NCBI GenBank assembly: GCA_000092065.1
Contig: CP000584.1
From: Ostreococcus lucimarinus
Lineage: Eukaryota
Length of the DNA: 64,000 nucleotides
Strand: one strand, 5' to 3'
In this document: positions 521 through 61,977 of the stretch, piece after piece
Position numbering within the stretch: the stretch's first letter is position 1
How the letters are laid out: every line of letters starts with the position of its first letter
The notes under the pieces: generated by a model
Database searches by the model: none
What the model was told of the DNA's origin: nothing
The model's input: the letters and a program-made list of their open reading frames with translations, nothing else
Made by a program: the position numbers and the translations under genes

Positions 521-947
521 CTGTCGATAAAGAAAAATCACGCGATCGCGCGTCGTTCATCGTCAGTCCCGCGTCCATCGCCGCGTCTCTCGTCCCGCGT
601 CGCCGTCGTCCCGAACCTCTCCCGCGCGCGTCCCGACCGCGCGCGTCGAGACCCCCCCCCCGCCGTCCTCCCCGCGCCCGTTCGCCCGTTCGCGTCGCGT
701 CGATTCGCGCGTCGCGCGCGCCGACGCACGTGCACCGCGCTTCTCGTCGCCCGCGCCGCGCTCTCGCGCAAAAACCGCCGCATCGTTCGTCGTCCCGCCG
801 TCGATCGAAGCAATCTTCGTCAACCTCCGATGCGTCGTCGTCGCGCTGTGCGTCTCGCTCGCGTCGCGCGCGTCTCGGCCTGTCGTCGCTCGAGCGCGCC
901 GTCTGTCGATCTTCGTCGCGTCGCGCGCTCGGCCGTCGCGTCGTCGT

Positions 948-4706: not shown

Positions 4707-4772
4707 ACGACGCACACTCGCACTAGTAGCAGTACACTCCGAGTTATAATACACCATCTCTATCTTAGTCTG

Positions 4773-5006
4773 TCACGCCTCTCCCGATATCTCCACGCGC
4801 TGTCGCTTCAACGAGGCCAAAATTTCGCGTCCTCGAGCCGCGTCCCGGTTCTGACGATGTCGTTTCGACGCCACGTGCGTCTCATAGTTGTTCCGCGACC
4901 CACACTTACACGCGCACACGTCGCAAAAGTAATCGTTCTCGCTTCCCGCGACGTGTGCGTCGTCCGATTTCGCCTCCACGACGTCGCCTTCCACCGCGCG
5001 CGCGTC

Positions 5007-17094: not shown

Positions 17095-17592
17095 TCAAGC
17101 CGCGAGCGCCGACAACGTCGGCGACACCGCGACGATTTCGCACGCGCACGCCCGCTCCTGCGACTCGTCCATGTACCCCGTCAAACTCAACGCGCTCCAC
17201 AACTTCCTACGATTCTCGTGCGCCACCTTCACCACGAACGTCCCCGCGAACGCCTCCCCCGCGCCCGCGCGCTCGCCGCCGACGAATTCCACCTCGAACC
17301 CGCCGTCGATCGCCCCGTGCGCCCGTCGCACCGCCGCGCGCACCATCGACTCCAAGCCCGCGCGCGACCACTTCCACGTCGCGTCTCGCGTGATCCTGCG
17401 CGTCGTTCGCGCGCGCGTCGTCGTCGTCAGTCTTCCAGTCTTCGTCCTCCCGCGCGCCTCGCGAGCGCCGACGCGTCCGTTCGCCGTCGCGCGCGCGCCT
17501 CGCCTCGCCTCGCCGACGCACAGTCGTATCCTCACGTACGCCCACCGCGCGCGCGGGAGCTCGAACGTGCGCTGCGCGACGTCGCTATCCAT
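17095..17592 (-). CDS. Hypothetical protein (conserved-looking C-terminal region only)
   Basis: Only the 3' third of ORF 17095..18228 looks protein-like (MDSDVAQRTFELPRARWAYVRIRL...GGFEVEFVGGERAGAGEAFAGTFVVKVAHENRRKLWSALSLTGYMDES). The remainder is R/A-rich read-through overlapping the + gene. Confidence 0.3.
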   Translation of the reverse strand: MDSDVAQRTFELPRARWAYVRIRLCVGEARRGARATANGRVGAREARGRTKTGRLTTTTRARTTRRITRDATWKWSRAGLESMVRAAVRRAHGAIDGGFEVEFVGGERAGAGEAFAGTFVVKVAHENRRKLWSALSLTGYMDESQERACACEIVAVSPTLSALAA

Positions 17593-17620
17593 CGCGCGCG
17601 CTCGCGTGACGCCGCACTCC

Positions 17621-18433
17621 ATGCCGACGCCCGCGCTCGCGCGCCTCGCGCTCGCGCGCCCGCGCGCGGACGTCCGCGCGGCGCGCGCGCGCGCGCGCGC
17701 CAACGTCAACGCCGACCTCGCGGACGTCGAGCGCGACGCGCGGAACGCCGGGCGCGCGCTCGTGCGCGTCTCGCGCGCGTTCGCCGTCGACCTCGGCGAC
17801 GCCGCGCGCGACGGCGCGCGCACCGCGCGCGAGTACGTCGCGCTGCCGGCGACGGAGTACAATCTCATCGACCCGGAGAACGTGTCGCGCGCGAGCGACG
17901 ACGCGAACGGGTTCGTCGTGAGCGCGGGGAGGCAAAAGCTGCTGTTTCTGGACGTCGAGCCGCGCGGGACGGTGCGCGTCGACGCGAGCGAGGAGGGATG
18001 CGTGCAGTCGCTCGTGGACGCGGTGATCGTGAATCGTAACCCGGACGACGCGAAGGCGACGAAAATAATCGACGCGATCAACGCGAGCCTGAAGGACCTG
18101 CGGTTGAGGAACGAGGTGACGGCGACGCGCTGCGAGGACACGGGGCGGGCGAGCATACGATGCCAAATCGACGTGTGGGGGGACTTTCGAGAGGGCGTGT
18201 TCGCGCGCGCGGGAACGCGGTTGAACACGATCTTAGGATGGAGCTTGGGGGCGGTGATGCCGTGGTTTTTGACGCAGCTCGCGGCGGATTACGCGAGATG
18301 GGCGCGCGACGAGCCGCGGACGACGGCGGAGAACGCGTCCCTGGCGAGCGTGGCGGGGAAAATCATCGCGGGGAGTCGAGGGAAGCTTCCCGAGGGCGTG
18401 CGCGAGTGCGAGTGCGTTGAAATAGTGCGATAA
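17621..18433 (+). CDS. Hypothetical protein (possible organellar protein; unknown domain)
   Basis: Protein-like region EYVALPATEYNLIDPENVSR...LLFLDVEPRGTVRVDASEEGCVQSLVDAVIVNRNPDDAKATKIIDAINASLKDLRLRNEVTATRCEDTGRASIRCQIDVWGDFREGVFARAGTRLNTILGWSLGAVMPWFLTQLAADYARW. The upstream part of ORF 17171.. is low-complexity. Start trimmed to MPTPALARLALARP. Confidence 0.4.
   Translation: MPTPALARLALARPRADVRAARARARANVNADLADVERDARNAGRALVRVSRAFAVDLGDAARDGARTAREYVALPATEYNLIDPENVSRASDDANGFVVSAGRQKLLFLDVEPRGTVRVDASEEGCVQSLVDAVIVNRNPDDAKATKIIDAINASLKDLRLRNEVTATRCEDTGRASIRCQIDVWGDFREGVFARAGTRLNTILGWSLGAVMPWFLTQLAADYARWARDEPRTTAENASLASVAGKIIAGSRGKLPEGVRECECVEIVR
17685..17715. repeat. (CG)n alternating microsatellite
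   Basis: gcgcgcgcgcgcgcgcgcgcgcc lies within or near the head-to-head 5' ends around 17592/17621. Confidence 0.7.
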
Positions 18434-18990: not shown

Positions 18991-19697
18991 CGATCTCCGA
19001 GCGCGCGCGTGTGCCGACGCGGCGACGCGCGATGATGATATGATGGCGTTCGCGCGCGTATTATATGAACGACCCCCGTTTCGCTTGAGTCGCGAACCGT
19101 CGCAGCGAATCCGACGGATGGTCGATCCCGCGACGACGCGCGCGACACAACACGACGACGCCATGAACGCGATCACGCAAACCATCGCCAGCTCGGCCGT
19201 CCGCGTCAACGCGACGTCCGCGAACGCCAAGCGCGTCAACCGGTGCGTCGGCGACGCGAACGCGACGACGAACGCGCGATGACGCGCGCGACGCGACGAC
19301 GCGAGCGATCGCGCGATCGCGCGCGCGCGCGCGGAGATGGACGCGCGCGCGCGAGTTCTGGGCGTGGAAACGCGCGCGCGCGTGGATGAATTTGCGTCGC
19401 GTCGAACGACGCGCGCGAAGGCGAGGGAGACGGGATCGGAGACGGCGCGGGCGTCGAACGTCGATGGGGGCGCGGTGAAGCCCTATCCACTGGATAAACC
19501 GACGCGCGCGGCGGTTCGCGCGGCGAACGGGGCGTTCGTGGACGAAGGTTCGGGCGAGGATGGGTGATTCATCGCGGGCGAGGGATAGCGCGCGAGCGAG
19601 CGCGGACGTGGGATGAGGACTGACGTGATGACGCGGGTGATTTTCGAAACGCAGCGCGACGCGACTCTCCGCGACGCGCGCCGTCGCCGGCGTCCCG

Positions 19698-20015
19698 GTG
19701 AAGAGGTGCGCGGAGGCGATTTTCGCGAACGCGCGCGGTGTCGTCGTCTTTCGTGTGCGAAGTGGGATAACGCCTGAACGCAGACTGACGTTTGATTATT
19801 TTTTCGTACGACGCAGCGCCCGTGTCGCGCCGCGCAAGTCCGTCCGCGGCGGCGCCGCCGTGACCAAGGCTTCCATGGTTGAGGTTGCGCAAATCGCCAA
19901 CCAGGGTGCGGAGATTGCGTCTATCGCCACGACGTGCTTCATCATCACCCTCATCGGTCTCGCCTTCGGTTTTGTGCTCCTTCGCGTCGAGGACTCCGTC
20001 GTGAACGGCGAATAA
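19698..20015 (+). CDS. PETM: Cytochrome b6-f complex subunit VII (PetM), nuclear-encoded; last exon plus an in-frame upstream extension
   Basis: The C-terminus MVEVAQIANQGAEIASIATTCFIITLIGLAFGFVLLRVEDSVVNGE matches PetM (spinach ..[34 protein letters not shown]). The in-frame extension back to 19698 (RSARVAPRKSVRGGAAVTKAS) resembles a transit-peptide tail but has no ATG. A candidate 62-nt GTGCGA...CAG intron with a T-rich tract lies at about 19755-19816. Exon 1 with the ATG is unresolved. Confidence 0.55.
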   Translation: MKRCAEAIFANARGVVVFRVRSGITPERRLTFDYFFVRRSARVAPRKSVRGGAAVTKASMVEVAQIANQGAEIASIATTCFIITLIGLAFGFVLLRVEDSVVNGE

Positions 20016-20273
20016 ACGCTCGTCGATCGGTTTTGACCACGGCGGCGTTCGGAGGGCGATTTGTTTGATTTTTGCTCAGCGAGTAGCGACGTCGCGCGCC
20101 ACGCGTGCGGCGACACATAGAAGCGATAAATATTACATCACACGATGTGCGTAACCACCGCGTTTTCCACGCACCAGCGCCCGCGTCCGTCGCCGAGCCG
20201 TTCGCCGACTCTCGCGCGTCTCGTCTCGCGCGAGGCGCGAGGCACACGCCGCGTCCGCACTTCAGAGCGTGAG

Positions 20274-20833
20274 ATGGAGTCCGTGTGGTGCCACGACTGC
20301 GCTCGGCGCGTGCACGTCGCCGCCGCGGCGCTGGATCAGGGCTCGCGAGACGCCAAGTGCCCGTCCTGCGACGGCATCTTTCTCGAGCGCGCCGAGTCGT
20401 CGTCCGCTGCCGCGCCCGCGCGCGGTCAAAGGACGGGCATCTCCGTCGTCTTCGGTCCCGCGTTCGTCGCGCACGGCGACGGCGCGTTCGGCGACTTTGA
20501 CTTCACGCAGTTGGACACGCGAAACTTCGACGCGCCGTGCGACGCGCGCGCGGTGGAGGCGCTTCCGGAGCGCGCGTGGGACGGCGGCGACGAGAAGACG
20601 TGCTCGGTGTGCCTCAGCGAGTTCGCGCGCGGCGATCGCGTGAAAACGATACCGAAGTGCTCGCATGAGTTTCATTTGAATTGTTTGACGGAGTGGTTGA
20701 AACTGGTGCGTGCGCGACGACGCGCGAGGATGAACGGATGGCGCGGACTGACGACGAATATAGCGCGATACGTGTCCGGTGTGCAGATGCAAGGTGTGCG
20801 ACGATGGCGTGGCGACGACGACGACGGCGTGAG
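20274..20833 (+). CDS. RING-H2 E3 ubiquitin ligase with N-terminal zinc ribbon (RNF126/BCA2-like); 2 exons
   Basis: The N-terminus MESVWCHDCARRVHV...CPSCDGIFLE is a zinc ribbon. The RING-H2 core is CSVCLSEFARGDRVKTIPKCSHEFHLNCLTEWLKL. A 59-nt intron (about 20706-20764) starts GTGCGT and ends ATATAG. Exon 2 supplies RDTCPVCRCKVCDDGVATTTTA-stop and completes the RING. The unspliced ORF 20145..20915 lacks the final CxxC. The table start 20145 was trimmed to the Met MESVW. Confidence 0.75.
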
Positions 20834-21048
20834 CGCGCGCGGGAGTACAAACAAACATAGCGATATAGATAGTCACCGCTTCGTGACTTTGCGAGCGAAA
20901 TGCAATGCGATTTAGACGAGCGCCGCGCGATATGATTTCGACGACTCCGTTCGATTACAACCGCTTCTCAAACGACGGTATCGCCGCCTGAGAAGCCAAT
21001 ATATCCACTAAGTAGAACTCGCTAAGATTGATCATTCACGCCCTGCGC

Positions 21049-21738
21049 TTACTTGCCTTCCTTGGCGGCTTGGAGCTTGAGCACTTTCTGTTTCGAGGAA
21101 AATCGCGTTCGTCGCGTGGGTTAGTCGCCGCGCTCGTCGTCGTCGCTTCACATCGCCTTTACACGCGCACAAACCGCTCGCAATGCGACGCACCTTGACA
21201 ATCTTTTGCTCCTCGACGAGGAACGCGCGCACGATGCGCTCACGAACCGCGCCAGCGGACAAGACGCCGCCGTACGCGCGCGTCACGCTCTTCTTGTTCT
21301 TGGACATGTGCTTGCGGCTATACTTTTGCGTCGCCACGCGCGGAACCTATCGATCGCGGACCATCAACGCGCGTCAACGTCAGTCAAAATGCTCTTCACC
21401 GCACGCGTCCTCCCTCGCGCGCGTTTGCGTCGCGCGCGCGTCGCGTCGACGACATCGATCGCGACGAAAGCCCTAGCGCGTCGACACCGATCGACATCGC
21501 CGCGCCCTCGCGCGCCTCTTCGCGCGCTCCCGCGCCCGCGCCCGCGAATCGACGACGAGTAATTATCCACACGCACCCCGTGAATGCGACCGGCATCACC
21601 AGCCGGCGTTTGCGCGCCCTTGGTCGTCTTCTTGACGTAGGCGATGCCCAAAGACCCGCCGGGCAATCGCTTCTTGACGATCTTGTTCGAGCGCGTGTTG
21701 TACGCGTGGCGTCGCTTGTACGTGATACGGGGCGCCAT
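21049..21738 (-). CDS. RPL34: 60S ribosomal protein L34e (eL34); 3 exons
   Basis: Exon 1 (about 21577-21738) is [54 protein letters not shown]. Exon 2 (about 21194-21346) is [51 protein letters not shown]. Exon 3 (about 21049-21087) is [12 protein letters not shown]-stop. Introns of about 230 and 106 nt both start GTGCGT and end with pyrimidine-rich ...AG. The spliced product is colinear with eL34. The unspliced ORFs 21364..21855 and 21032..21337 carry junk tails. Confidence 0.85.
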
Positions 21739-21952
21739 GTTTGTTTTCGTGCGTTTGGTGTCGCGCGGGAGCGAGCGAGGCGCAAAGAGACGGATTGTGC
21801 GCGCGATTGCTTCGTTTTGGTACCCGCGATCGAGTACAGGGTTGTGGGAACACATGTGCGCGCCGCGGCGCTTGATAAGTTAATACACGAGCTAGCGCGC
21901 GCGCGAGGACTAAACAACGCGCGCTTACGCGCGGGAAAATCACACAATCAAA

Positions 21953-23440
21953 TCACGGAAACCCTAAATCGCTCTCTTCATGGTCGTCGTCGTGGACGTA
22001 ACGCGATGGATGCGACGGGCGGCGCCAGAGCTTGATTTCGTTGAGCGTCGCGGTGAGCGCGGCTTCGGCGGTGAAACGCACGGCGGTGACGGGCGAGGTG
22101 TGGAGCTTGTGGGTCATGATAGGGACGAGACGTTCAACCTCGTCGCGATGGGCGGACTGAACGATGTTAGCGTCGGGGCCGACGAAAGAGGGCGCGCGAC
22201 GAGACGCGCGCGCGGCGCCGACGGAGAGTCGCGAGGCTTGGTCCGCGAGCGTGGCGGTGTTCGAGTCGCGCGCCGCGGTTTCGCCGAAGTCGTCGTCTTC
22301 GGGGAAATGCCAGTCCCAGAACGCCACTCGACAGTCCTCGCCCACGGAGGCGATTCGAAGGAAGCGATGACCTTCGCCGGCGGCGCGCTCGTCCACGGCG
22401 ACGTCGGTGATCCAGCTGCGATGGCCGCCGCACCCCCACGCGACGACTTCTCGCTCGTACAACCCCCATATTTCGAGCATATCGCTCTCACCACCAGCTA
22501 TGACGTACCGACCGCACGGGCTCCAAGTCACGGCGTTGAAACCGGCGTAGTAGGACTTGAAGCCGGCGACGATGTTCGGCCTGTCGAGCTCGACGTCCAA
22601 CACGCGACACATCCCCGCCCCATTCACGACGACTAAATAACGACAATCGGGAGAAAATGCCGCGGCATTCAGCGTATGTCGTCCGAAATGCCATCGCGCG
22701 CTCGGATTCGACCCGGGAACTTGCGACGCGGCGACGCTCAGCGCCGACGCGTCCGCCAACGCCTCAAACTTTGCCGCGACGACATCCTTCGACGAATCGT
22801 ACGTGTACATGCTCCCATCGGCGTGCAACGACACGAAATCGAACCCCGTCGCGAGGTTCTCCTTATCGTCCCCTCTCGTTCGCCACCGCACGCACGTCGT
22901 CCTCGACGCGTTCACCCCGTCGCCGTCCGCGTTCCATCGCGTCGTCGTCGCCGTCGCCCGCTTCGCCTTCTCCCCCAACCATCTCCCCAAATCCACCCCA
23001 CACACCTCCCCGTTCGCCAATCCGACGAGCAAATCGCATCGTTCGCCCTCCTCTTTCGCCCTCCACGCCAGCGACGTCACGCACGCGCCTCCGAACGTCA
23101 CGCTCGCCGCCGTCTTCGCGTCGTTCGCCTCGTCCAACGCCATCGCGCGCACCCCCTCTCCCGCGTTCACCAGCGCGTACCGCCGCCCCTCCACCGTCGC
23201 CACCTCCACGCGCTGTCGATTTCTCGCGTCGTACGCCTCGCGCGCGCCCGCGCCTCGCGCGCGCGCCCCCGCGCGTCGCAGCGACACCGCGCGCTCCAGG
23301 TTGTACCGCCCCTCGGGCGTCTTGAAGCAATCGCGCGCGTCGCCGCGCTCGCGCGCGCGGTCGAGCGACGTCGACGCGCGCGTCGCGTCGTCGAGCGACG
23401 CGCGCGCGCGCGACGGCGCGTCGAGCGACGCGCGCGGCAT
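21953..23440 (-). CDS. WD40-repeat protein (WDR20-like?)
   Basis: The C-terminal 500 aa of ORF 21953..24610 show WD repeats (...VTWSPCGRYVIAGGESDMLEIWGLYEREVVAWGCGGHRSWITDVAVDE...FLRIASVGEDCRVAFWDW...). An ATG lies at about 23438-23440 (MPRASLDAPS...). The 5' end of the CDS contains an ASLD-type tandem repeat (23340-23440). The further N-terminal extension to 24610 is a spurious R/A/S-rich read-through overlapping the + strand GDT1 gene. Confidence 0.65.
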   Translation of the reverse strand: MPRASLDAPSRARASLDDATRASTSLDRARERGDARDCFKTPEGRYNLERAVSLRRAGARARGAGAREAYDARNRQRVEVATVEGRRYALVNAGEGVRAMALDEANDAKTAASVTFGGACVTSLAWRAKEEGERCDLLVGLANGEVCGVDLGRWLGEKAKRATATTTRWNADGDGVNASRTTCVRWRTRGDDKENLATGFDFVSLHADGSMYTYDSSKDVVAAKFEALADASALSVAASQVPGSNPSARWHFGRHTLNAAAFSPDCRYLVVVNGAGMCRVLDVELDRPNIVAGFKSYYAGFNAVTWSPCGRYVIAGGESDMLEIWGLYEREVVAWGCGGHRSWITDVAVDERAAGEGHRFLRIASVGEDCRVAFWDWHFPEDDDFGETAARDSNTATLADQASRLSVGAARASRRAPSFVGPDANIVQSAHRDEVERLVPIMTHKLHTSPVTAVRFTAEAALTATLNEIKLWRRPSHPSRYVHDDDHEESDLGFP

Positions 23441-23625
23441 CGCGCGGCGGAGTGTCGCCGTCGCGTCTCGCCCCGCAGACGGCGACGCGATGGCGACCGC
23501 GGACGCGCGCGTCGACGCGTCGAGCGACGCCGACGCCGACGCCGACGCCGATGCGTCGTCGCCGACGCCGACGGCGCGCCGCCGCGACGGCGCGCCGCCG
23601 ACGCGACGCGCGCGGCGCGACGCGA

Positions 23626-23942
23626 TGGCGACGGACGCATCGAACGCGGACGACGCGCGCGGCGCGCGACGACCGAGCGACGACGCGCTGGCGCGCGCGT
23701 ACGAACTCCTGGACGCGCGCGGACGCGGATATTTCACCGCGCGCGACGTGCGGCGCGTGGCGGACGCGAACGGGTTCGCGGACTGGTCGGACGAGCGCGT
23801 GCGCGCGATGGTGTCGGCGTTCAAGCCCGAGGTCGAGCGGCGCGTCACGCGCGACGGCGCGGACGAGAGTTTGTTTAGAATGAGTAGAGTAGAGTTTGAG
23901 CGCGCGGTCGCGCGCGCGGGGGCGCGCGCGCCGCGCGCGTGA
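23626..23942 (+). CDS. Possible small EF-hand-like protein (weak)
   Basis: The tail of ORF 22803..23942 reads MATDASNADD...AYELLDARGRGYFTARDVRRVADANGFADWSDERVRAMVSAFKPEVERRVTRDGADESLFRMSRVEFERAV. This is EF-hand-like in spacing with non-canonical loops. It sits between the WD40 start and the GDT1 start. Confidence 0.25.
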
Positions 23943-24020
23943 TTGAAACGTACGACGGAGGCGCGCGCGCGCTCGAACGACTTCGGCGACGACGACGCGC
24001 GACACTCGACGACGCCGCCG

Positions 24021-24878
24021 ATGATGGCGCCGCGCGAGCGCGCGAGGACGATGTCTCGCGCGAGCGCGCGATCCCGCGCCGCGGTCGTCGCGGTGGTTTT
24101 CGCGGCGTGCGCGCTGTGCGGCGTCGTCGACGCCGCGCGCTTATCCGCCGCGGATCGCGCGGGCGACGACCTCACCGCGCTCGGCGCGGACGCCGTGCCC
24201 GAGGGCGACGGCGGATTCAACGACGGGTTCGTGTCTTCGCTCGGCATGGTGCTCGTGAGCGAACTCGGGGACGAGACGTTCATCATCGCCGCCATCATGG
24301 CGATGCGAAACTCGCGAGGCGTCGTCCTCGCGGGCGGGCTGTGCGCGCTCACCATCATGACCGTGCTGTCCGTCATGCTCGGGTTGGTGGTGCCGCAGTT
24401 GATTAGTAAAGAGACGGTGAGTAAGGCGGCGTTCGTTTTGTACACGTTCTTTGGATGTCGGTTGATGTACTTGGCGTACAAATCGGACGGCGCGGCGTCG
24501 ATGACGGGGGAAATCGAAGAGGTTGAAGAAAAGTTGGAAAAGGGAACGTCCGTGAGCACGCGCACGCGCGTGGCGCGTGTTTTGGCCAAGATTTCGTCCC
24601 CAGTGTTCATCGAAGCCTTTGTGCTGATCTTTTTGGCCGAGTGGGGTGACAGAAGTCAGATCACGACCATCGCGTTGGCGACGCATAAAAACCCGTACGG
24701 CGTCGCCATCGGCGGTATCCTGGGCCACACGTTCTGCACCTCCTTGGCGGTTGCTGGAGGCAGAATCGTCGCCATGAAGATTTCCCCTCGAACGGTGTCG
24801 TTCGTCGGTGGTATTCTCTTCTTCGGTTTCGCGTTGCACGCGCTTTATTTCGGCGCGCCCGGAACTGAGCACATGTGA
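24021..24878 (+). CDS. GDT1/TMEM165/UPF0016 family cation (Ca2+/Mn2+) transporter (PAM71-like)
   Basis: The two signature E-x-G-D-(K/R)-(T/S) motifs are present (ELGDETF and EWGDRSQ) in two homologous 3-TM halves, with a signal/transit N-terminus. The first ATG is at about 24021 (MMAPRER). The ORF-table start 23943 is a TTG. Confidence 0.85.
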   Translation: MMAPRERARTMSRASARSRAAVVAVVFAACALCGVVDAARLSAADRAGDDLTALGADAVPEGDGGFNDGFVSSLGMVLVSELGDETFIIAAIMAMRNSRGVVLAGGLCALTIMTVLSVMLGLVVPQLISKETVSKAAFVLYTFFGCRLMYLAYKSDGAASMTGEIEEVEEKLEKGTSVSTRTRVARVLAKISSPVFIEAFVLIFLAEWGDRSQITTIALATHKNPYGVAIGGILGHTFCTSLAVAGGRIVAMKISPRTVSFVGGILFFGFALHALYFGAPGTEHM

Positions 24879-25012
24879 GCGAAGCGCTCCGGCTTGACAA
24901 TAGCGATCACCGTAGTTTTTTAGAAGCGCGCCACACGGTGCGATGATTGAAAGCAATTCATATGGTTAATAAATCAAGCGATAACTACCAGTACTAGACA
25001 TCGATGGCGACT

Positions 25013-25708
25013 CTAAGAGCGATCTCTCTCGTCTTTGTTCTTTTGCATTTCGTCGATGAAGCGGTCGATGGCTGTCACCATCTCTAAGTTCACCTCATAC
25101 TCCGCCTTGAGCTCCTCCGTCGCGTCCGGCGACTCGTACATGTCTTGCAAGAACGAAACCATGTATTCGTACTCCTCCTTCGTGAATAACAGCGCGGCTT
25201 CCGCGACAGCGGACGTCGCCAACAAGCTCTGCCGCTTCAACTGCGGCGGCAAATCGTGAAACTTCTTGTAGCAGTTCCCGATTCGTTCCCAGTCCCCGTC
25301 GATCATGCTCTCGCACAAGATGCGCAAGTGCACATCAATGATCGTGCTGCACGTCGTGAGATCGCCTTCGTACACTTGCGTGTACACTTCCACCACGCTC
25401 AGTTCGTTCACCGCGTCGTACGTCGTCGTCGCCCCCAGCAGCGCCGCCGCCTGGAACCTCGCGTTCACGCTCGAGTCCCCGACGTTCGTCGCGCACGCGG
25501 CGATGAGCTTCGACTCGAGCTGCGCCCACCCGAGGACGTCGTCGTGCTCGATGATCTTCGCGGGCGCGTCCGGGAACTGCCGAAGCGCCGCGTTCGCGGG
25601 CGCCTCCGCCGTCGCGGCGAACGGTTTGGCGACGCGCGCGCGGTGCGCGCGCGATGCGCGCGCGATTCGCGCGGTCGGAGTGAAAACGGACGCACGCGCG
25701 GTGCTCAT
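25013..25708 (-). CDS. Hypothetical protein with an N-terminal transit-peptide-like region (possibly plastid)
   Basis: MSTARASVFTPTARIARASRAHRARVAKPFAATAEA is followed by a well-behaved domain: ...KIIEHDDVLGWAQLESKLIAACATNVGDSS...DGDWERIGNCYKKFHDLPPQLKRQSLLATSAVAEAALLFTKEEYEYMVSFLQDMYESPDATEELKAEY.. I recognise no family. Confidence 0.5.
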   Translation of the reverse strand: MSTARASVFTPTARIARASRAHRARVAKPFAATAEAPANAALRQFPDAPAKIIEHDDVLGWAQLESKLIAACATNVGDSSVNARFQAAALLGATTTYDAVNELSVVEVYTQVYEGDLTTCSTIIDVHLRILCESMIDGDWERIGNCYKKFHDLPPQLKRQSLLATSAVAEAALLFTKEEYEYMVSFLQDMYESPDATEELKAEYEVNLEMVTAIDRFIDEMQKNKDERDRS

Positions 25709-25975
25709 CGTTCGTCTCGAGGCGCGCGAGGGCGCGGACGGGCGCGAGCACGGCGCGATGTGCGGATAAGATGCGAGTCGCTCTGACGTCATTTCCAGTG
25801 TGCCAGACGCCGTGAGAGCGGACGCGCCGATCGTGTCGCGAAACGATGGATTGCGGGACGAAAGCGAAGCGAAACGGGTGATGTGAAACTTGCGAGCGTT
25901 GCAAATATGTTGGTCTAGCGTACAACCCGTCGCGCGCGACGGGGAAAGAATCGCTCGCCTCGGCGAGGCGAATCG

Positions 25976-27043
25976 TCATCCATACTTCGGCTTCCAAACC
26001 TTTTCGAACCAATCTCTGGTTTTCGCCCACGCCTCGTCGGGGGTGTAGATCGGCTCGTACCCGAGATCGTTTTTCGCGGCCTCGATGTTGAACCATCTGT
26101 TGATGAGCAACATGCGCACGGAGAACGGAGTAAGTTTGAACTTTTTGCCGCACAGGTAGCCGACGGCGTCGCACGCGTACGCGAGCGGCATCATGAAAGT
26201 CCAACCGGGAAGCTTGAACTTGTTCTTCAACGACGGATAGCCGAGTTCGACGAATGCGCGATCCAAGAAGTCCCACAGCTTGACCGGCTCACCGTCGGTG
26301 CAAATGTAAAACTTCTTCAACGCCGGCGAATTTGGATACAACGCTCGCTCGCCCAAAATCAACCCGTGGCAATAATTATCCACGTAACACACGCTGATCA
26401 AGTTTTCCCCGTTCCCGAAAATCCTCAACCTCTTGGCGTTGATCAGGAAGTTGTGCATGAACAGCATATCCCTCGGTCCGTACACCTGATGCGGCGCCAC
26501 GGCGACGCTAAAAAACGTCTTCCCGTCGCACGCGTCCATCATCGCCTGCTCACCCATCGCCTTACTCTCCGCGTACTCCTGCAAGAACACCTTCGGGAAA
26601 CCCAATTCGCTCTCTCGCTTTCCATTGATATCGTTCCCATCGAACCGCGTCGAGGGCGACGACGACATCACGCACTTCGTAATCCCGTGCTTTTTGCACG
26701 CCGCGATCACGTTCAGCGTCCCCACGCGATTCACCGCGTCGTACAGCTCGCGCTTATGATACGGCCCGACCAGCGCCGCGATGTGCCACACGCACTCCGC
26801 GCCCTCGAACGCTCGATCGACGTCATCGGGCTTCGTGAGATCGCCCTGAAACCACACGATGCGGTCGTCGTCCTCGGCGTCGCTCGGCCTCGGCGCGACG
26901 TCGAACGCCACCACGCGCTCGGCGCCGCGCTCGACGAGCATCTCGACCAGGCGACGGCCGACGAAGCCCATGCCGCCGGTGACGACGCATCGCTTGGGGA
27001 CGGGCGGGAAGGCGGCGGGGACGGATTTCTTCGACCTCGCCAT
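25976..27043 (-). CDS. NSDHL: 3-beta-hydroxysteroid dehydrogenase/decarboxylase (NSDHL-like, NAD-dependent epimerase/dehydratase fold)
   Basis: The 355-aa ORF has the Rossmann motif CVVTGGMGFVGRRLVEMLVERG and the catalytic YAESK. Overall it is colinear with sterol-4-alpha-carboxylate 3-dehydrogenases. Confidence 0.75.
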   Translation of the reverse strand: MARSKKSVPAAFPPVPKRCVVTGGMGFVGRRLVEMLVERGAERVVAFDVAPRPSDAEDDDRIVWFQGDLTKPDDVDRAFEGAECVWHIAALVGPYHKRELYDAVNRVGTLNVIAACKKHGITKCVMSSSPSTRFDGNDINGKRESELGFPKVFLQEYAESKAMGEQAMMDACDGKTFFSVAVAPHQVYGPRDMLFMHNFLINAKRLRIFGNGENLISVCYVDNYCHGLILGERALYPNSPALKKFYICTDGEPVKLWDFLDRAFVELGYPSLKNKFKLPGWTFMMPLAYACDAVGYLCGKKFKLTPFSVRMLLINRWFNIEAAKNDLGYEPIYTPDEAWAKTRDWFEKVWKPKYG

Positions 27044-27211
27044 CGCGCGAGGCGAACAGTGCGGCGAAGAGCGAGCGCGCGCGAGCGACGTCGACGAGCG
27101 CGCGTTCGGCTAAGAAGAGTTCGTGATGATGATCAACGCTACCTAGGATTGTGATCTCTCCGGATGAGTGGCTAATTCTATCGCGCGCGCGGCCGGCGCT
27201 CGTCTCTGCGC

Positions 27212-27702
27212 TCACGGCGCGCTCGGCGCCGTCGCGGAGTCGATGGCCGACTTCGCCGCTTTCAAACGCTCCTTCAACTCCAACGCGAACACGCTCTTTA
27301 AATCTTGATCGCGCGTGCGCAAGATGTACTCGTCCAACCCGCCGGCTTTGTCCATGCAGCGGAGCGCGTGCGCGGTGACGCGCATCGGGATCATCTCCTC
27401 CAGGAGTTCGCTGTACACTCGCTTCTTTTGCGCGTTCGGAAGCCATCGACGGCGAGTTCTGCGCGCGCGAAAATGCGACACGAATCGTTAGTCGATGACC
27501 GGCGGCGCGGCGGCGCGCCGAGACCGTGCGTCGGGGCGGTGAGATCGCTCGAACGCGACGCGAACACGCACTTGTTGCCCCCGTCCTCGCTCACGTTGTT
27601 GCCGAATTTGATGTGTTTACCCGCGAACAGACCGCGGCGCGCCTTGCCTTGCACCACGCGCGCGAGGGCGCGTCGCACGGCGGGCGCGAGCTCGGTGGAC
27701 AT
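27212..27702 (-). CDS. MRPL28: Mitochondrial ribosomal protein bL28m; 2 exons
   Basis: Exon 1 (about 27572-27702) is MSTELAPAVRRALARVVQGKARRGLFAGKHIKFGNNVSEDGGNK. Exon 2 (about 27212-27459) is TRRRWLPNAQKKRVYSELLEEMIPMRVTAHALRCMDKAGGLDEYILRT... The 112-nt intron starts GTGCGT and ends ...CGCGCAG. The spliced junction GGNK-TRRRW matches the bL28 consensus (GNxxSxxxxKTRRxWxPN). Confidence 0.75.
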
Positions 27703-27873
27703 CGAGGCGCGGCGCGGACGTGTGCGGTGAGGTATCGTTTTCGTGGGTGATATCGTACAGCGCGAGCTAGGTATGAGTGAATGAATGTTTCGTTTGTGCG
27801 CGCGACGCGCCGTGCGGTTTCGGTGGCGACCTCGGCGAGTGTTTCACGTTCGAGCGCGACGACTTGCGTCTCC

Positions 27874-29991
27874 TTAGCCGTCGTAGCTATCGCACGGCGA
27901 GTCGGGGACGCGACCGTGTCTGAACTTGCACGCGTCGCCGTTCCAGCAGTTGCCACGATCGAAGTGTTTGCAATACACCGGCCCTCGGCGCGGCGGATCG
28001 GGTTTCCTCGCGAAGAGCTCAATGCGCTTCCGCTTTAAACTCTGCTGCTGATGCTGTACGTTTTGTAAACGCTGTTGAATTTGCCGTCCGACGACGTCAC
28101 CGTATCTCGCGCCGTTGTTCATCGCCCCGACGTGTGTCTCTGTCGATGAACGACTCACGACTTCGCCCTCTTCGCCGGGCACCCAAAGCTTTTCTAACGG
28201 ATGCGACACACCGGCGTTTTTGTACTGGAACCCGAGCGCGCGTGCGCACCCTTCTGGTGGTGGCGGTGGAACTTCCGTGGCTTGTGTAATTTGCGCTTTC
28301 ATGATTCGGACATCTCCTTGATTCTCACCCTTAGCCATGGACGTCGGAGGCGGAGGAACGTCGACCATCTGCGCATACGCACGCTCTACGGGGGCCAACG
28401 AAGCGAGAGGATGAGGTGCTTGCTGCGGCGTATTCTTCGCATCTTTCTTCGCCTGCACCGCTGCTTTGTGCATCTTCGAAGTCTGATGCTGCGCCCAGAC
28501 GTTCGCCAAGGACGTAGGCGTAGGCGCATGGACGGTGTGATCGCAAATCTTGCACCGCTTTGAATGTTTGAAATCCTTGGTAGTTTCAGCTTTCAGCTGA
28601 GTTTTCGTCTTCTTCACTTGCACTTTTTCTCCGAGTCTTTCGAAAACAGAAGACGCCGGTGGAACTGGAAGTGACGGTATTGGCGACGACGACAACGATT
28701 GCAAGAGCGCGTGACTCTGCGGTGCGTTGTCTTCTTCCCACTTAATGTGTTGCTCCGCACCCTCGAGTGCAGCGTTCGCTTCTTGCCTCGTGATGCTGGC
28801 GTGAAACGGAATTCCGGCCCGATTTAATCGCGCTATTTGCTCTGTAGTGGCGCGCTGGACAAAAAGAACATCGTTCGCGCTTGGAGCGAGCGCGTGACCG
28901 TGGATCTTCATGAACTGGATGCTCGTCGGCAGCGCGACTTCGACTGGATTTGAGAGCACTTCGCGAATCTTTGTCACCTTATCTGACGACATCGAACCGT
29001 AGGCCGCGATGACGAGCGCTGGAAATAACTTGACTCGCTTCACCAAAGTATCCAAAGCGCAGTCCTTGGACGTTCGATTTTTGAAGAAGTCGCGCGCCTC
29101 CTTTTGTAGTGACGACGGAATCGCCTTGGCTATGAAAGAATCGACCGAATGTTGCTCAAAGAGCGCCTGCGAAAACGCGCGCAACACGCGCCACAAATAT
29201 TGCGCGTCTGTCGTCTTTTCGTCATGCGACATTTCCGTGAGCTGGTCGCTCGCAAAAGCGTCCAGTGCGTGCATCGGACCGCCCAAGTACTGCGAGTGCA
29301 TCGTCACCTTGGTGTCCGCTTCGGTGACGTTGAGCAAAGCCTGCGCCACGTCCTTGCAGCGCGTCGCCTTGTCATCCCACGCACTACCCGCTTTGCTCGA
29401 CGCCGCGCCTCGGGTGCGATCCAACGTGAGCTTCAAAGCGTTCAAAGATGTGATCGCATTGCGACCGTCGCTCTTATTCATCGCCTCGGGCACGCTCTCG
29501 GCGAGCGCGTTCGCCGCGTCTTCGATCGCGCGCACCGTCGACTCCGGCAAGTTCTTCGACATGTCATCGCGAACACCAACGCGCTGCGTCAGATGTCGCG
29601 TATATCGCATCAGTTTTTCGTACGGCGACTCCGCCGGAATGCGCATCTCCGACGGCAATCGATCGTGCGCGTCTCGCACGAGCTCCACCGCGTTCGCGAC
29701 CTCCGCGTCTCGCGTCCGCCCAGATCTCTTACACGCCCGAAACGCATTCGCCACCGCGTGCAGCGCGTCTTGAAATCTCTGTTGTCCCTCCCTGTCCGCC
29801 ACGCGCGTCGTCACGCGCGCGTCGTGCCCGCTCTGCAAACCTCGCGAGAGCGTGTTCGCGAACGCCGCGTCCTCGTCATCCTCCTCCGCCGCCGCCGCCG
29901 CCGCCGCGCGTCGCTTCTTCGCCGTCGGCGTCGCGCGCGCGCCGTCCGCGCGCGCGTCGTCCTCGTCGTCCGAGCTCTCCGCCGCGGGCAT
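27874..29991 (-). CDS. CCCH-type (plus a C2H2 U1-like) zinc-finger protein, probably RNA-binding
   Basis: The 705-aa ORF has an acidic N-terminus. An internal C2H2 is KRCKICDHTVHAPTPTSLANVWAQHQTSKMHK. The C-terminal C-x7-C-x5-C-x3-H finger is VYCKHFDRGNCWNGDACKFRHG. The central region (IHGHALAPSANDVLFVQRATTEQIARLNRAGIPF) may be a NYN/PIN-like nuclease fold, with low certainty. Confidence 0.6.
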   Translation of the reverse strand: MPAAESSDDEDDARADGARATPTAKKRRAAAAAAAEEDDEDAAFANTLSRGLQSGHDARVTTRVADREGQQRFQDALHAVANAFRACKRSGRTRDAEVANAVELVRDAHDRLPSEMRIPAESPYEKLMRYTRHLTQRVGVRDDMSKNLPESTVRAIEDAANALAESVPEAMNKSDGRNAITSLNALKLTLDRTRGAASSKAGSAWDDKATRCKDVAQALLNVTEADTKVTMHSQYLGGPMHALDAFASDQLTEMSHDEKTTDAQYLWRVLRAFSQALFEQHSVDSFIAKAIPSSLQKEARDFFKNRTSKDCALDTLVKRVKLFPALVIAAYGSMSSDKVTKIREVLSNPVEVALPTSIQFMKIHGHALAPSANDVLFVQRATTEQIARLNRAGIPFHASITRQEANAALEGAEQHIKWEEDNAPQSHALLQSLSSSPIPSLPVPPASSVFERLGEKVQVKKTKTQLKAETTKDFKHSKRCKICDHTVHAPTPTSLANVWAQHQTSKMHKAAVQAKKDAKNTPQQAPHPLASLAPVERAYAQMVDVPPPPTSMAKGENQGDVRIMKAQITQATEVPPPPPEGCARALGFQYKNAGVSHPLEKLWVPGEEGEVVSRSSTETHVGAMNNGARYGDVVGRQIQQRLQNVQHQQQSLKRKRIELFARKPDPPRRGPVYCKHFDRGNCWNGDACKFRHGRVPDSPCDSYDG

Positions 29992-30415: not shown

Positions 30416-31489
30416 GCGCGAGACGGCGACGCGCGACGACACGCGAAGCGCGCGGGCGCGATCGAAGGGAACGGGCGTTTAGGGAACGCGCGCGAACGGA
30501 CGGACGGACGCGCGGACGGACGGCGGACGGCGGACATGCTGACGCGGGACGACAGCGCGAAGGCGCGACGCGGCGACGATTTCGGAAAGGGCGCGACGCC
30601 GCGGTGCGTGACGGGGTTCGGCGCGAGCGATGGATCGACGACGACGTCGGCGCGATCGACGCCGTCGACGAGCCCGCCGTCGGTGACCGTGGGGGCGTCG
30701 ACGAGCCCGCGACGGGCGCTGCTCGCCGAGGCGCTGCGATCGCGGGCGCGCGATGGCGCGGACGGGGGAACGACGCGCGACGCGCGCGCGCGACGGTCGC
30801 CGAGCGAGGACAGCGAGTATTCGTGCGATGAGAATTTCGTTTTAAAGAGTGCGGGCGGTGGTGTGGATGTCGGCGCGCGCGCGCGCGTTGGGAGCGGGCG
30901 AGACGTCGATGCCGACGTGGCGGTGCGCGAGGCGAGGGACTCGGACGAGGGGGGCTTCGCGTGCGAGTCGCGCGCGGCGTCGACGCCGATCGACATCCCG
31001 CGCGGGAGCGATGGAATGTTACACTGGAAAACATGCGTTCAAACGCGCGAGCGAGCGACGCGGGCCGATGCGCGACGCGCGCGAGGCGACGCGCGAGCGA
31101 GCCCGCCCGTTTTCGGGTGTTCTGACCTAACGACTGACGATCTGGTGTGATTCGACCGAATCCAGGCGCCGAAGACGACCGCTCGAACAGCCGCACGTGG
31201 CTTGACGAAGCGCGAACGAAGCGCGATCAAAGAAACTGATGATGACGACGACGTGTACTTTTTTATGATTCTTCGAATGATGCGCCCGAGACGTCGCGGG
31301 CGGTTTTGCACGCAATAAGGCTTCGAGTCCGCTCCTTCGCGTAATACGCGAAGGAACGATGGAACGCGACGCCTCGTGATTATTTTTTGCCGGTTTAGCT
31401 GGCCCAAGCCATATGTATATTCTGCGCCTCAATATCACTCCTTTCGCGCCGAGCAGTGCTGGCACTTGTGTCGATGTAAACTAACATGT

Positions 31490-36984: not shown

Positions 36985-37533
36985 ATGTCGTACTTCGCGC
37001 TCACGGTGGTGAGCGCGAACGACGTCCCGATATACACGCGCGACTTCACCGCGCGCGAAGACGACGGCGCGCGCGCGGAGGTGCGTCTGAGGGCGAATGT
37101 TTGTTCGAACGCGCGAAGGATGCGAGACCGCGCTCGGAAGACTGACGACGACGACGACGACGACGACGCGCAGACGAGCGCGCCGCTGGACGCGCCGATG
37201 CGCGAACTCGTCGTGCGCGCGGCGCTCGATTTCGTGGACGAACGGTCGTGGGAGACGAACGCGACGTACCTGCGCGTGGTGGATCGATTCAACGACGTCG
37301 ACGCGCACGCGCACTGCGCGCCGACGCGCGCGCGCATGGTGTTGCTCACGAACGGCGCGAGGACGAGCGGAGGCGAGGAAGCGGTGCGAGGGTTTTTCGG
37401 GGAAGTGCACGAGGCGCTGGCGATCGCGACGATGAATCCGATGCTCGGCGAGGACGAGGCGTTGGGGAGCGCGTTCGACGAGCGAGCGCGGTCGGCGGCG
37501 GCGCGGCGGTTGGGCGCGCGCGCGCCCGAGTGA
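36985..37533 (+). CDS. TRAPPC2: TRAPP complex subunit 2 (sedlin)
   Basis: MSYFALTVVSANDVPIY...ELVVRAALDFVDERSWETNATYLRVVDRFNDV...GFFGEVHEALAIATMNPM...SAFDER aligns with human sedlin ([31 protein letters not shown]...NFFTDVYDLYIKFSMNPF...SAFDRK). An inserted poly-Asp loop is present. Confidence 0.8.
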   Translation: MSYFALTVVSANDVPIYTRDFTAREDDGARAEVRLRANVCSNARRMRDRARKTDDDDDDDDAQTSAPLDAPMRELVVRAALDFVDERSWETNATYLRVVDRFNDVDAHAHCAPTRARMVLLTNGARTSGGEEAVRGFFGEVHEALAIATMNPMLGEDEALGSAFDERARSAAARRLGARAPE

Positions 37534-57369: not shown

Positions 57370-57494
57370 GCGATCGCGCTCGGCGATGCGCTCTGCGGCG
57401 CCGCGCGCGCGAGCGTTGGATGACTGACAATGGATAACGCGGGAAACGAGACGGCACACCTCGACGCCGCGCTCGCGAGCGATCGCGCGCCGCG

Positions 57495-61095: not shown

Positions 61096-61388
61096 CGCGC
61101 CGCCGCGACGTCGCGCGCGCGGTGTGACGTTTCGCGACGGCGCGCGCGCGTCGGCCGCGTCGCGCGACGGCGCGCCCGTAACTTTCGCGAGCTCGCGGCG
61201 CGCGACGCGCGCCGCTTGGCTTACGGGTACACTAAATACGCACTGTACCTGAAAGTGTCCGAACCCTAAATTTTTTTGTTTACGACGCGAACCGACGGTT
61301 TTGACGCGACACTCTCGAGGCGACGCTCGGGCGTTACGACGCACACGACGACGCGCGAGGACGACGACGACGACGACGCGCGAGGACG

Positions 61389-61977
61389 ATGCGGGTGCAC
61401 ATCAAGCCCAGGCTGCAGCAGGAGAAGTGGAGCCTGTACTGGAAGACGTCGATGTCCACGAGAACGTTCGCGCTCGACGAATTCGACTTGGAGGTGAAGC
61501 ACGACGAGACGACGGCGAAGGAGGTGAGGACGCGCGAAAACTTTGAAATGCGGCATTCGATGACGTTTCACGCGCGCAGGTGAAGGCGAGAGTGGCGGAG
61601 TTCATCGGGCTCCCGCCCGTGGAGACGTTGCATCGATTGGAAGAGTTCGTCGAGCCTTGGGAGTTGATGTGCGCGCGAGACGACGCGACGGCGACGGCGA
61701 AGACGCGACTCCGTCGATAGTCTCGCGAAACGTGACTGACTGCGTCGTGAATTGACCTGTGTTTCCGATTTAAAACAGTATGTATAACGGCCGCGAGCTC
61801 GATGACGGCAAAACGCTCGCCGCGTGCGGCGTTCCGGCCGAAGACGGCGTGAGCGTCGTCGTCGTACGCAAGCAGCTCGTCGCCGAAGGTTGGAAGCTAC
61901 GATTTGAAGATAACGAAGACTCGGACACGGAAGACGACGATTTTTAAGCCATCGTAACGACGCGCGCGGATGTAACG
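61389..61977 (+). CDS. ELOB: Elongin B-like ubiquitin-fold protein; multi-exon (at least 2 introns)
   Basis: Exon 1 is MRVHIK...TFALDEFDLEVKHDETTAKE. A 56-nt GTGAGG...CGCAG intron follows. Exon 2 is VKARVAEFIGLPPVETLHRL.. Another intron ends at the acceptor ttccgatttaaaacag. The last exon is (M)YNGRELDDGKTLAACGVPAEDGVSVVVVRK...EDNEDSDTEDDDF-stop. Compare elongin B ..[40 protein letters not shown]. Exact exon 2/3 junctions are unresolved. Confidence 0.6.

Follow-up and report, generated by a model that had tools for sequence, protein, structure and literature searches.

We find that the segments interrupting several conserved genes in the window, by which we mean the whole 64-kb stretch of DNA analysed here, are spliceosomal introns of canonical U2 type with GT-AG ends and belong to the class found outside chromosome 2 in an intron-poor genome, a reading to which we give a probability of about 97%. 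A first-pass annotation, made from the sequence alone, had proposed that removing such segments restores conserved proteins, and this is borne out by Pfam domains, by exact RefSeq matches and by contigs that lack exactly these segments. Ostreococcus lucimarinus CCE9901, or a strain all but identical to it, is the source of this nuclear DNA: five proteins match CCE9901 RefSeq entries exactly, three of the five being spliced products, and there is synteny with O. tauri chromosome 4 (record CAID01000004.2). Its GC content was measured as 0.63, where about 68% had been estimated before. The intron set comprises 11 members, two each in RPL34, PetM and an EloB-like gene and one each in the RING, bL28m, sedlin, Pop5 and mtHSP70 genes, and six of them (both in RPL34, both in PetM, RING and bL28m) have support from transcript-like contigs. 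These contigs, L001-L014, are environmental, are 99-100% identical to the window and come from SRA and JGI samples (DRR699210, DRR699222, DRR066263, SRR17264770, SRR23599312, SRR17229381, SRR17229554, SRR28369152, SRR28369054, SRR28369094, SRR28369095, SRR28368996, ERR9850597 and IMG 3300019261); we infer their RNA origin from the splice patterns that they display.

The RPL34 gene (eL34; 21049..21738, minus strand) has coding exons at 21738-21577, 21346-21194 and 21087-21049, stop codon included, and encodes a product of 117 aa. Intron 1 (21347..21576, minus strand, 230 nt) has the donor GGG|GTGCGTG and the acceptor TAG, with the branch point TGACTGACG 33 nt ahead of the latter, and intron 2 (21088..21193, minus strand, 106 nt) has the donor AAG|GTGCGTC, the branch point CGACTAACC and the acceptor CAG; the coordinates proposed earlier for these two GTGCGT introns were exact. 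The Pfam L34e domain covers positions 1-94 of 94 in the spliced product, with 100 bits against 47 bits for the unspliced form, and the product equals XP_001417580.1 residue for residue. Contig L009 lacks both introns. Intron 2 is missing from L009, L010, L012 and L013, and intron 1 is retained in L010 and L013; since these last two contigs keep the first intron and have lost the second, they point to RNA processing and not to intron-less DNA alleles. The position of intron 1 is common to O. tauri and M. commoda, and that of intron 2 is occupied in O. tauri, whereas M. commoda and Bathycoccus have no intron there; one RPL34 position is shared, one is specific to Micromonas and Bathycoccus, and one is specific to Ostreococcus.

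On the plus strand, the RING-H2 E3 ligase gene (20274..20832; exons 20274-20705 and 20764-20832) encodes a 166-aa product with an N-terminal zinc ribbon and a RING. Its intron (20706..20763, plus strand, 58 nt) has the donor CTG|GTGCGTG and the acceptor TAG, which follows the branch point GGACTGACG after 12 nt; the GTGCGT donor at 20706 was placed correctly before and the acceptor one base off (59 nt, to 20764). Its removal brings back the last CPVC of the RING through the junction ...LKL-RDTCPVC, as already described, and zf-RING_2 then matches over 2-44 of 44 positions with 48.5 bits against 34.7 unspliced. The spliced product is identical to XP_001417334.1 in every residue, the intron is missing from L010-L014, and O. 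tauri has a 61-nt intron with the donor GTGCGTT at the identical position. The bL28m gene (27212..27702, minus strand; exons 27702-27572 and 27458-27212; 125 aa) is interrupted by a phase 2 intron of 113 nt (27459..27571, minus strand) with the donor CAA|GTGCGTG and the acceptor CAG, 29 nt past the branch point CGACTAACG. Here too the predicted donor was right and the acceptor lay one base away, at 27459 and not at 27460 as in the 112-nt version. Eight contigs (L001-L008) skip 27459-27571 exactly, with flanks that are 99.5-100% identical, and splicing yields the expected GGNK-TRRRW junction, a Pfam L28 match of 79.5 bits where the unspliced ORF has no match, and a protein that agrees with XP_001417584.1 residue for residue. 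All four donors on which the original proposal was built thus read GTGCGT, and the profile comparison it suggested finds L34e, L28 and zf-RING_2 full only after splicing. The description of these genes as mis-called applies to a prokaryote-style ORF table, whereas in the public eukaryotic annotation their introns are already removed.

PetM has two introns on the plus strand, and contig L011 lacks both. Intron 1 (19243..19654, 412 nt; donor CCG|GTGCGTC; acceptor CAG, 31 nt past the branch point GGACTGACG) had been overlooked. Intron 2 (19706..19816, 111 nt; branch point AGACTGACG) has the donor GAG|GTGCGCG; the GTGCGA at 19755 suggested earlier lies inside it, and L011 uses the GTGCGC at 19706. 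The three exons join in frame into a product with the PetM domain. In O. tauri PetM there is an intron at the position of intron 1, with the donor GTGCGTC, and none at that of intron 2. The EloB-like gene had been called elongin B, a label that we reduce to ubiquitin-like, as PDB and Pfam matches are to ubiquitin only (27.6 bits for Pfam ubiquitin with the spliced product, over the cut-off). Its intron 1 (61524..61579, plus strand, 56 nt) has no ACTRAC branch point and begins at the GTGAGG donor (GAG|GTGAGG) recognised before; XP_001417350.1 and orthologues read KE-VKARV across the junction. Intron 2 (61669..61778, plus strand, 110 nt; donor GAT|GTGCGCG; branch point TGACTGACT) is left unspliced in the RefSeq model of 91 aa. 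When it is spliced, the product reads ...VEPWELI-MYNGRELDDGKTL... and matches Ostreococcus-like, Micromonas and Bathycoccus orthologues over their full length; a search for this junction in JGI contigs returned no transcript contig.

EloB-like intron 2 is one of four further likely introns, the others being in mtHSP70, Pop5 and sedlin, that came from a combined scan of the window for a donor, the branch point ACTRAC and AG, and that are judged likely on motifs and homology. The candidate intron in sedlin/TRAPPC2 (37081..37173, plus strand, 93 nt; donor GAG|GTGCGTC; branch point AGACTGACG), found by motif scan only, is in frame and without stop codons, and Sedlin_N becomes contiguous once it is spliced (1-127 of 129 positions against 25-127 unspliced). 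The homologue search for sedlin returned unspliced ORF calls only and no transcript support, and the public sedlin model is partial. The candidate in Pop5/Rpp14, from the motif scan (17396..17521, minus strand, 126 nt; donor ACT|GTGCGTC; branch point AGACTGACG), would give a spliced protein of 123 aa that matches Rpp14/Pop5 over 5-98 of 104 positions with 25.2 bits, over a cut-off of 23, where the unspliced form matches over 47-98. The probable intron in a DnaK/HSP70-type gene, presumed mitochondrial (521..729, minus strand, 209 nt; donor CAC|GTGCGTC; branch point GGACTGACG), comes from the motif scan and frame analysis only; a first exon of 18 codons (783-730) precedes it, MRRFLRESAARATRSAVH would be joined to ...GDVIGIDLG, and the gene extends beyond the window. 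This fragment had no Pfam match, and the junction search in JGI contigs was empty. For PetM and three of the four scan genes the public models are incomplete or none matches, and the spliced products of EloB-like, sedlin and PetM had no match when looked up by exact sequence. Four other scan candidates are ascribed to chance: 13951-14085 is antisense within the long conserved AP-1 gamma ORF, 32726-33230 and 34794-35186 are antisense within the 1761-aa ORF of a Sec7-type GEF, and 57022-57450 is antisense and overlaps a SET-domain gene. For the candidate 30923-31165, Pfam was blank for the flanking ORFs.

All 11 introns begin with GT and end with AG. Donor positions +1 to +5 read GTGCG in 10 of the 11, with T at +6 in eight and G at +7 in five. 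The branch point is ACTGAC in eight introns and ACTAAC in two to three; in 10 of 11, CTRAC precedes the acceptor by 12-42 nt, usually with the branch point 28-33 nt upstream of a YAG acceptor, and EloB-like intron 1 has only GATGAC. Taken by themselves in 64 kb, the motif counts are not significant. The hexamer GTGCGT occurs at 75 sites against 74.9 expected, and about eight of the 75 are donors; being not enriched, it is a poor seed alone, contrary to the earlier recommendation, and becomes useful when ACTRAC is added. Combinations of donor and branch point number 21 against 23.7 in shuffles for introns of up to 600 nt, and GACTRACG shows a mild enrichment (11 against 6.2 expected), with seven of the 11 copies within these introns. 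The branch point GACTGAC/GACTAAC, which had been missed, is much more diagnostic than the donor. The "unusually T/C-rich" acceptor tracts reported earlier proved weak and inconsistent: over the last 20 nt the pyrimidine fraction is 0.40-0.70 and the T fraction 0.0-0.5 against a background of 0.19, and the tract is absent from the RING and sedlin introns. Across the whole window no Rfam family reached the gathering threshold, and over 19000-28000 a single weak miRNA-like match appeared at E<=1; as these scans are near empty, we see no recognisable snoRNA or snRNA within the introns.

The contigs would be uninformative on splicing if they were genomic sequence from wild strains of Ostreococcus with precise intron loss, and they do keep neighbouring genes in genomic order. 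We consider this very unlikely, however, because one and the same locus, with 100% flank identity, occurs in differing combinations, without both RPL34 introns in L009 and without intron 2 only in L010 and L013, and because each of the absent segments has GT...AG at its ends and contains a branch point. Moreover, it is the unspliced ORFs that are widespread in DNA metagenomes (RING as 196 aa on 590 contigs and 213 aa on 105 contigs; the 182-aa sedlin form on 470 contigs), and the RefSeq models of the reference strain splice the identical segments.

Less likely again is that the introns are a mobile repeated family sharing GTGCGT by copy descent, like the introner elements of Micromonas pusilla CCMP1545. 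Such elements are known in the sister genus (PMC3879977), and GACTGACG is also the branch point of IE-C elements, but all-against-all BLAST of the 11 introns gave only matches of 12-43 nt in CG-rich or splice-signal stretches, a BLAST search of the window for further intron copies found none, and the positions, unlike the diverged interiors, are common to O. tauri. In the O. tauri RPL34 and RING genes the introns lie at identical positions, with GTACGT or GTGCGT donors and GACTGAC branch points. That the genes are broken by frameshifts from sequencing or by decay into pseudogenes, with coincidental GT...AG boundaries, has nothing more in its favour than the broken ORFs themselves; O. tauri is interrupted at identical codons, wild-population flanks are 99-100% identical with exact excision, and GCGT at +3 to +6 in five of the six transcript-verified donors would recur by chance with p of about 4e-11 at window composition. 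Contig excision and the O. tauri positions refute this explanation, to which we give the least credence of all. U12-type (minor) introns, with 5' /RTATCCTT and the branch point TCCTTAAC, are likewise rejected, as none of the 11 introns starts with RTATCC.

Both the 5' splice site of these U2-type introns, G|GTGCG(T/C), and their branch point, (G)ACTGAC(G) or ACTAAC, are rigid, the latter in the manner of yeast. From general knowledge of the spliceosome, U1 would pair at +1, +2, +5 and +6 with a wobble at +3 and a mismatch at +4, and U2 would pair with ACUGAC with the branch A bulged. Mamiellales U1 is reported in a 2022 preprint to keep the standard ACUUAC, with no compensatory change (bioRxiv 10.1101/2022.06.08.495308). 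The introns and their GTGCGT signal are already known: the signal was published in 2008, and the introns are mostly in public gene models. For O. lucimarinus outside chromosome 2 the consensus is GTGCGTG with GACTGACG (Irimia and Roy, 2008; PMC2483917), and ACTGAC is present in 87.2% of confirmed introns (PMC2483917). The window introns are members of that set, alike in organism, in GTGCGTG, in ACTGAC/GACTGACG and in size range; G or C about equally often at +7 and some ACTAAC branch points are no substantial difference. Micromonas has AG|GTGCGT and NCTGAC (Verhelst et al., 2013; PMC3879977), a donor and branch point in common with the window, and the gene order WD40-RPL34-RING is conserved, although the M. 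commoda RPL34 introns examined have GTGAGT donors, unlike the window. Hemiascomycete yeasts use GTATGT ... TACTAAC where the window has GTGCGT and ACTGAC, and the yeast-like signals are an independent convergence. EloB-like intron 1 is similar in form to introns in the low-GC region of Ostreococcus chromosome 2 (40-65 nt, GTRNGT, weak signals), whereas the other ten have strong signals and the window has 63% GC and synteny with O. tauri chromosome 4.

To genome science this adds little. A prokaryote-style ORF caller would run through the introns into junk tails, and when picoeukaryote DNA is treated in this way the proteins come out truncated or with junk tails, also for Ostreococcus chromosomes that were submitted as metagenome bins labelled 'bacterium'. 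The model of donor, branch point and AG still betters the public models, in EloB-like intron 2, in the partial sedlin and in the unrecorded three-exon PetM.

The octamer AAGCCCTA/TAGGGCTT has exactly two copies in the 64-kb window, both inside first introns, with AAGCCCTA sense in PetM intron 1 and antisense in RPL34 intron 1. A literature search on AAGCCCTA or the telo-box in Ostreococcus gave nothing relevant. We tentatively raise the possibility, somewhat doubtful as it is, that AAGCCCTA could be an orientation-independent transcriptional element in first introns of highly expressed genes; if so, it would offer a concrete reason for an extremely compact genome to keep introns preferentially in such genes. 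It resembles the plant telo-box AAACCCTAA, and, splice signals aside, no other block is as well conserved when either intron is aligned with its equivalent in O. tauri.

We find that joining exons across short introns with a GTGCGT donor yields complete conserved proteins from three genes, as the first-pass annotation had claimed. Exons were joined by script after direct reading of the region. RPL34, on the minus strand, consists of exons 21738-21577, 21346-21194 and 21087-21049, and its introns at 21347-21576 (230 nt) and 21088-21193 (106 nt) match exactly the coordinates proposed earlier. The RING-H2 gene (20274-20832, plus strand) contains a single intron at 20706-20763 (58 nt), which had been started correctly and ended 1 base too far, and bL28m (27702-27212, minus strand) contains a single phase-2 intron at 27459-27571 (113 nt), for which the end was right and the start was 1 base off. 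All four donors, read directly, are GTGCGT. In Pfam the spliced RPL34 product covers Ribosomal_L34e completely (1-94/94, 100.4 bits), while the unspliced form reaches 47.1 bits over the first 55 columns only, and the junk tail that had been quoted for the latter was found in the ORF table. Spliced bL28m covers Ribosomal_L28 1-60/60 (79.5 bits), with no match for the unspliced form, and the RING product covers zf-RING_2 2-44/44 (48.5 bits), compared with 34.7 bits and an early end at column 35 without splicing.

By exact-sequence look-up, the three spliced products are identical in every residue to the O. lucimarinus CCE9901 records XP_001417580.1 (RPL34), XP_001417334.1 (RING) and XP_001417584.1 (bL28m). 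These introns are therefore already part of the public annotation, and the mis-calling of the three genes is limited to the prokaryote-style ORF table. Two intron-less neighbours, of 355 and 705 aa, also have exact RefSeq matches on the same 930,724-bp contig, which identifies the window as nuclear DNA of O. lucimarinus. The earlier observation is confirmed, and its interpretation supported with minor corrections, as a correct rediscovery of already-known biology, and both the excision of the introns and the restoration of the proteins are demonstrated here.

The excision is seen in environmental transcript-like contigs, which were chosen for carrying uninterrupted ORFs of the spliced proteins and were then aligned to the window. 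Precisely 27459-27571 is missing from eight contigs with 99.5-100% identity to the window (seven Logan runs and one JGI sample). Contig L009 lacks both RPL34 introns, and 20706-20763 is missing from L010-L014, three of which (L010, L012 and L013) also lack 21088-21193. In L010 and L013, RPL34 intron 1 is kept although intron 2 has been spliced out. Such a mixture of intron states within a single locus, between perfectly matching flanks, is expected of partly processed RNA and not of intron-less DNA alleles, and we infer an RNA origin. The retained first intron could reflect slow or regulated removal, or assembled pre-mRNA. L009 is probably chimeric, since its nt 1-694 have no match to the window. 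In the RING-RPL34 intergenic/3′UTR stretch (20764-21089), all the environmental contigs differ from the window by the same 4-nt indel. One JGI contig (L002) lacks, in frame, 150 nt of the 705-aa C3H1 zinc-finger gene (28050-28199, minus strand); this gap, which is bordered by a GCATC direct repeat and lacks GT-AG boundaries, resembles the outcome of reverse-transcriptase template switching, an assembly artefact or an indel rather than an intron.

In L011, PetM (plus strand) runs from 19242 directly into 19655 and from 19705 directly into 19817. The gene therefore has two introns, one of 412 nt at 19243-19654 with a GTGCGT donor and one of 111 nt at 19706-19816 with a GTGCGC donor. The GTGCGA previously put forward as the PetM donor at 19755 lies inside intron 2 and is unused. 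The three-exon gene (19163-20015) encodes, in frame, a 109-aa product with a PetM domain and a transit-peptide-like N-terminus, for which exact look-up found no record.

It had been suggested that the donor consensus could seed a search for further introns. A scan for GTGCG[TC], then ACTRAC, then the first AG recovered all six transcript-verified introns and proposed others, which were weighed by frame analysis and Pfam; taken together, these support four further candidates, for none of which was transcript support found. On the minus strand, Pop5/Rpp14 (17095-17622) has a predicted intron at 17396-17521 (GTGCGT/GACTGACG), and its profile coverage is 5-98/104 after splicing (25.2 bits, over the cut-off) against 47-98 before. 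A DnaK/HSP70-type gene, probably mitochondrial, has a candidate at 521-729 (minus strand, GTGCGT/GACTGACG) after an 18-codon first exon, supported by frame continuity and motifs; the fragment at 521-783 gave no Pfam match. In sedlin/TRAPPC2 (36985-37533, plus strand) the 93-nt intron at 37081-37173 is in frame and stop-free, which leaves the unspliced ORF of 182 aa seemingly intact and ORF logic blind to the intron; splicing makes Sedlin_N contiguous over 1-127/129. The RefSeq sedlin, XP_001417338.1, is a 109-aa partial model, and in prokaryote-style gene calls the 182-aa form appears on 470 contigs. The gene earlier called elongin B (61389-61947, plus strand), for which support stops at "ubiquitin-like", has intron 1 at 61524-61579 (GTGAGG) and intron 2 at 61669-61778 (GTGCGC). 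RefSeq XP_001417350.1 (91 aa) splices intron 1 only, reads into intron 2 and loses the conserved C-terminal half, while the three-exon model gives a ubiquitin-like protein of 130 aa, alignable over its full length with the Ostreococcus-like, Micromonas and Bathycoccus orthologues. Four other scan candidates, antisense to long conserved ORFs, were rejected as chance. A candidate at 30923-31165 (plus strand; GTGCGC donor, branch point CGACTGACG) falls in a gene that gave no Pfam match and is situated between those for the C3H1 protein and the GEF.

GTGCGT occurs at 75 sites on both strands of the window (74.9 expected), of which only about 8 are donors, so the hexamer alone is not enriched; GACTRACG occurs 11 times (6.2 expected), and a loosely defined donor-branch point-AG pattern is not commoner in the window than in shuffles. 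GCGT nevertheless occupies +3 to +6 in five of the six transcript-verified donors (p about 4e-11 under window composition), and the non-random part of the signal is its coincidence with verified junctions. Across all 11 introns, GTGCG stands at +1 to +5 in ten and T at +6 in eight. A branch point that the first-pass annotation did not report, (G)ACTGAC(G)/ACTAAC, is located 12-42 nt (mostly 28-33 nt) upstream of the acceptor in 10/11. That annotation overstated both the T/C-richness of the acceptor tracts, which is modest (mean pyrimidine fraction of the last 20 nt about 0.55; a short T run in several, none in the RING and sedlin introns), and the GC content (0.63 in the window, against the about 68% given for the genome).

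As to the kind of intron, all-against-all BLAST gave only short CG-rich or splice-signal matches and hence no repeated family, which rules out introner elements; U12-type identity was rejected, and Rfam found no embedded RNA genes. For O. lucimarinus introns that lie outside chromosome 2 and are confirmed by ESTs, Irimia and Roy (2008; PMC2483917) describe very strong 5′ sites of "atypical consensus GTGCGTG", with ACTGAC in 87.2% and GACTGACG in 66.5%, and the Micromonas signals are AG/GTGCGT and NCTGAC (Verhelst et al., 2013; PMC3879977). By inference, U1 would form Watson-Crick pairs at +1, +2, +5 and +6, a wobble at +3 and a mismatch at +4, and U2 would pair with ACUGAC, leaving the branch A bulged. 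A U1 snRNA search in five Mamiellales found the standard pairing region in every candidate identified, and thus no compensatory change (Roy and Bowser, bioRxiv 10.1101/2022.06.08.495308). Lanier et al. (2008; PMC2367439) report that introns are over-represented among strongly expressed genes of O. lucimarinus, which fits the RPL34 and PetM cases.

The syntenic O. tauri locus (chromosome 4 record) has the gene order WD40-RPL34-RING-PetM-DUF1997. Its RPL34 has introns at both same codon positions (donors GTACGT and GTGCGT, branch points GACTGAC), and in its RING gene an intron of 61 nt occupies the corresponding position (donor GTGCGTT, branch point TTGACTGACG); intron interiors have diverged between the two species. 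PetM intron 1 is common to both (O. tauri donor GTGCGTC), but intron 2 is missing in O. tauri and was therefore gained or lost between them. The annotated O. tauri PetM (64 aa; L018, the O. tauri locus, 4191-4890) lacks the first exon. Micromonas commoda keeps the order WD40-RPL34-RING, but its RPL34 (L020 601-1464) shares one intron position with Ostreococcus, has a new one and lacks Ostreococcus intron 2, with GTGAGT donors. The Bathycoccus prasinos RPL34 model (160 aa; L022 601-1142) has a junk N-terminus from reading through an N-terminal intron. The 885-aa "WD40" ORF of the window (21953-24610, minus strand) is about 400 aa longer than its O. tauri orthologue (478-489 aa), and its upstream half overlaps an opposite-strand GDT1-family gene (23943-24878, plus strand); it is a spurious ORF extension in GC-rich DNA.

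Exactly two copies of AAGCCCTA occur in the window (0.14 expected; two copies in 0/100 shuffles), both in first introns, at 19478-19485 in PetM (sense) and 21468-21475 in RPL34 (antisense). They are the best-conserved internal blocks relative to the orthologous O. tauri introns (L018 4571-4578 and 2786-2793), the PetM block extending to GAAGCCCTATCCAyTGGATA with the palindrome TATCCA-N-TGGATA inside. Judged from sequence, AAGCCCTA may be a putative telo-box-like regulatory element. The telo-box-like AACCCTAA also has two copies (0.18 expected): that at 21960-21967 precedes the RPL34 start by about 220 bp, and that at 61262-61269 precedes the elongin B-like start by about 125 bp.

MDA9599443.1, MDA9599195.1 and MDA9599196.1, labelled "hypothetical protein N9S31_... 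[bacterium]" at NCBI, come from contigs 925-932 kb long and match unspliced ORFs of Ostreococcus exactly or almost exactly. It seems that a chromosome of Ostreococcus was submitted as a bacterial metagenome bin, its genes called as for a prokaryote. Within the 1761-aa Sec7/BIG-type GEF ORF (31490-36775, minus strand), GC content dips to 52-53% over 4 kb (32001-36000), compared with 56-70% elsewhere in the window.
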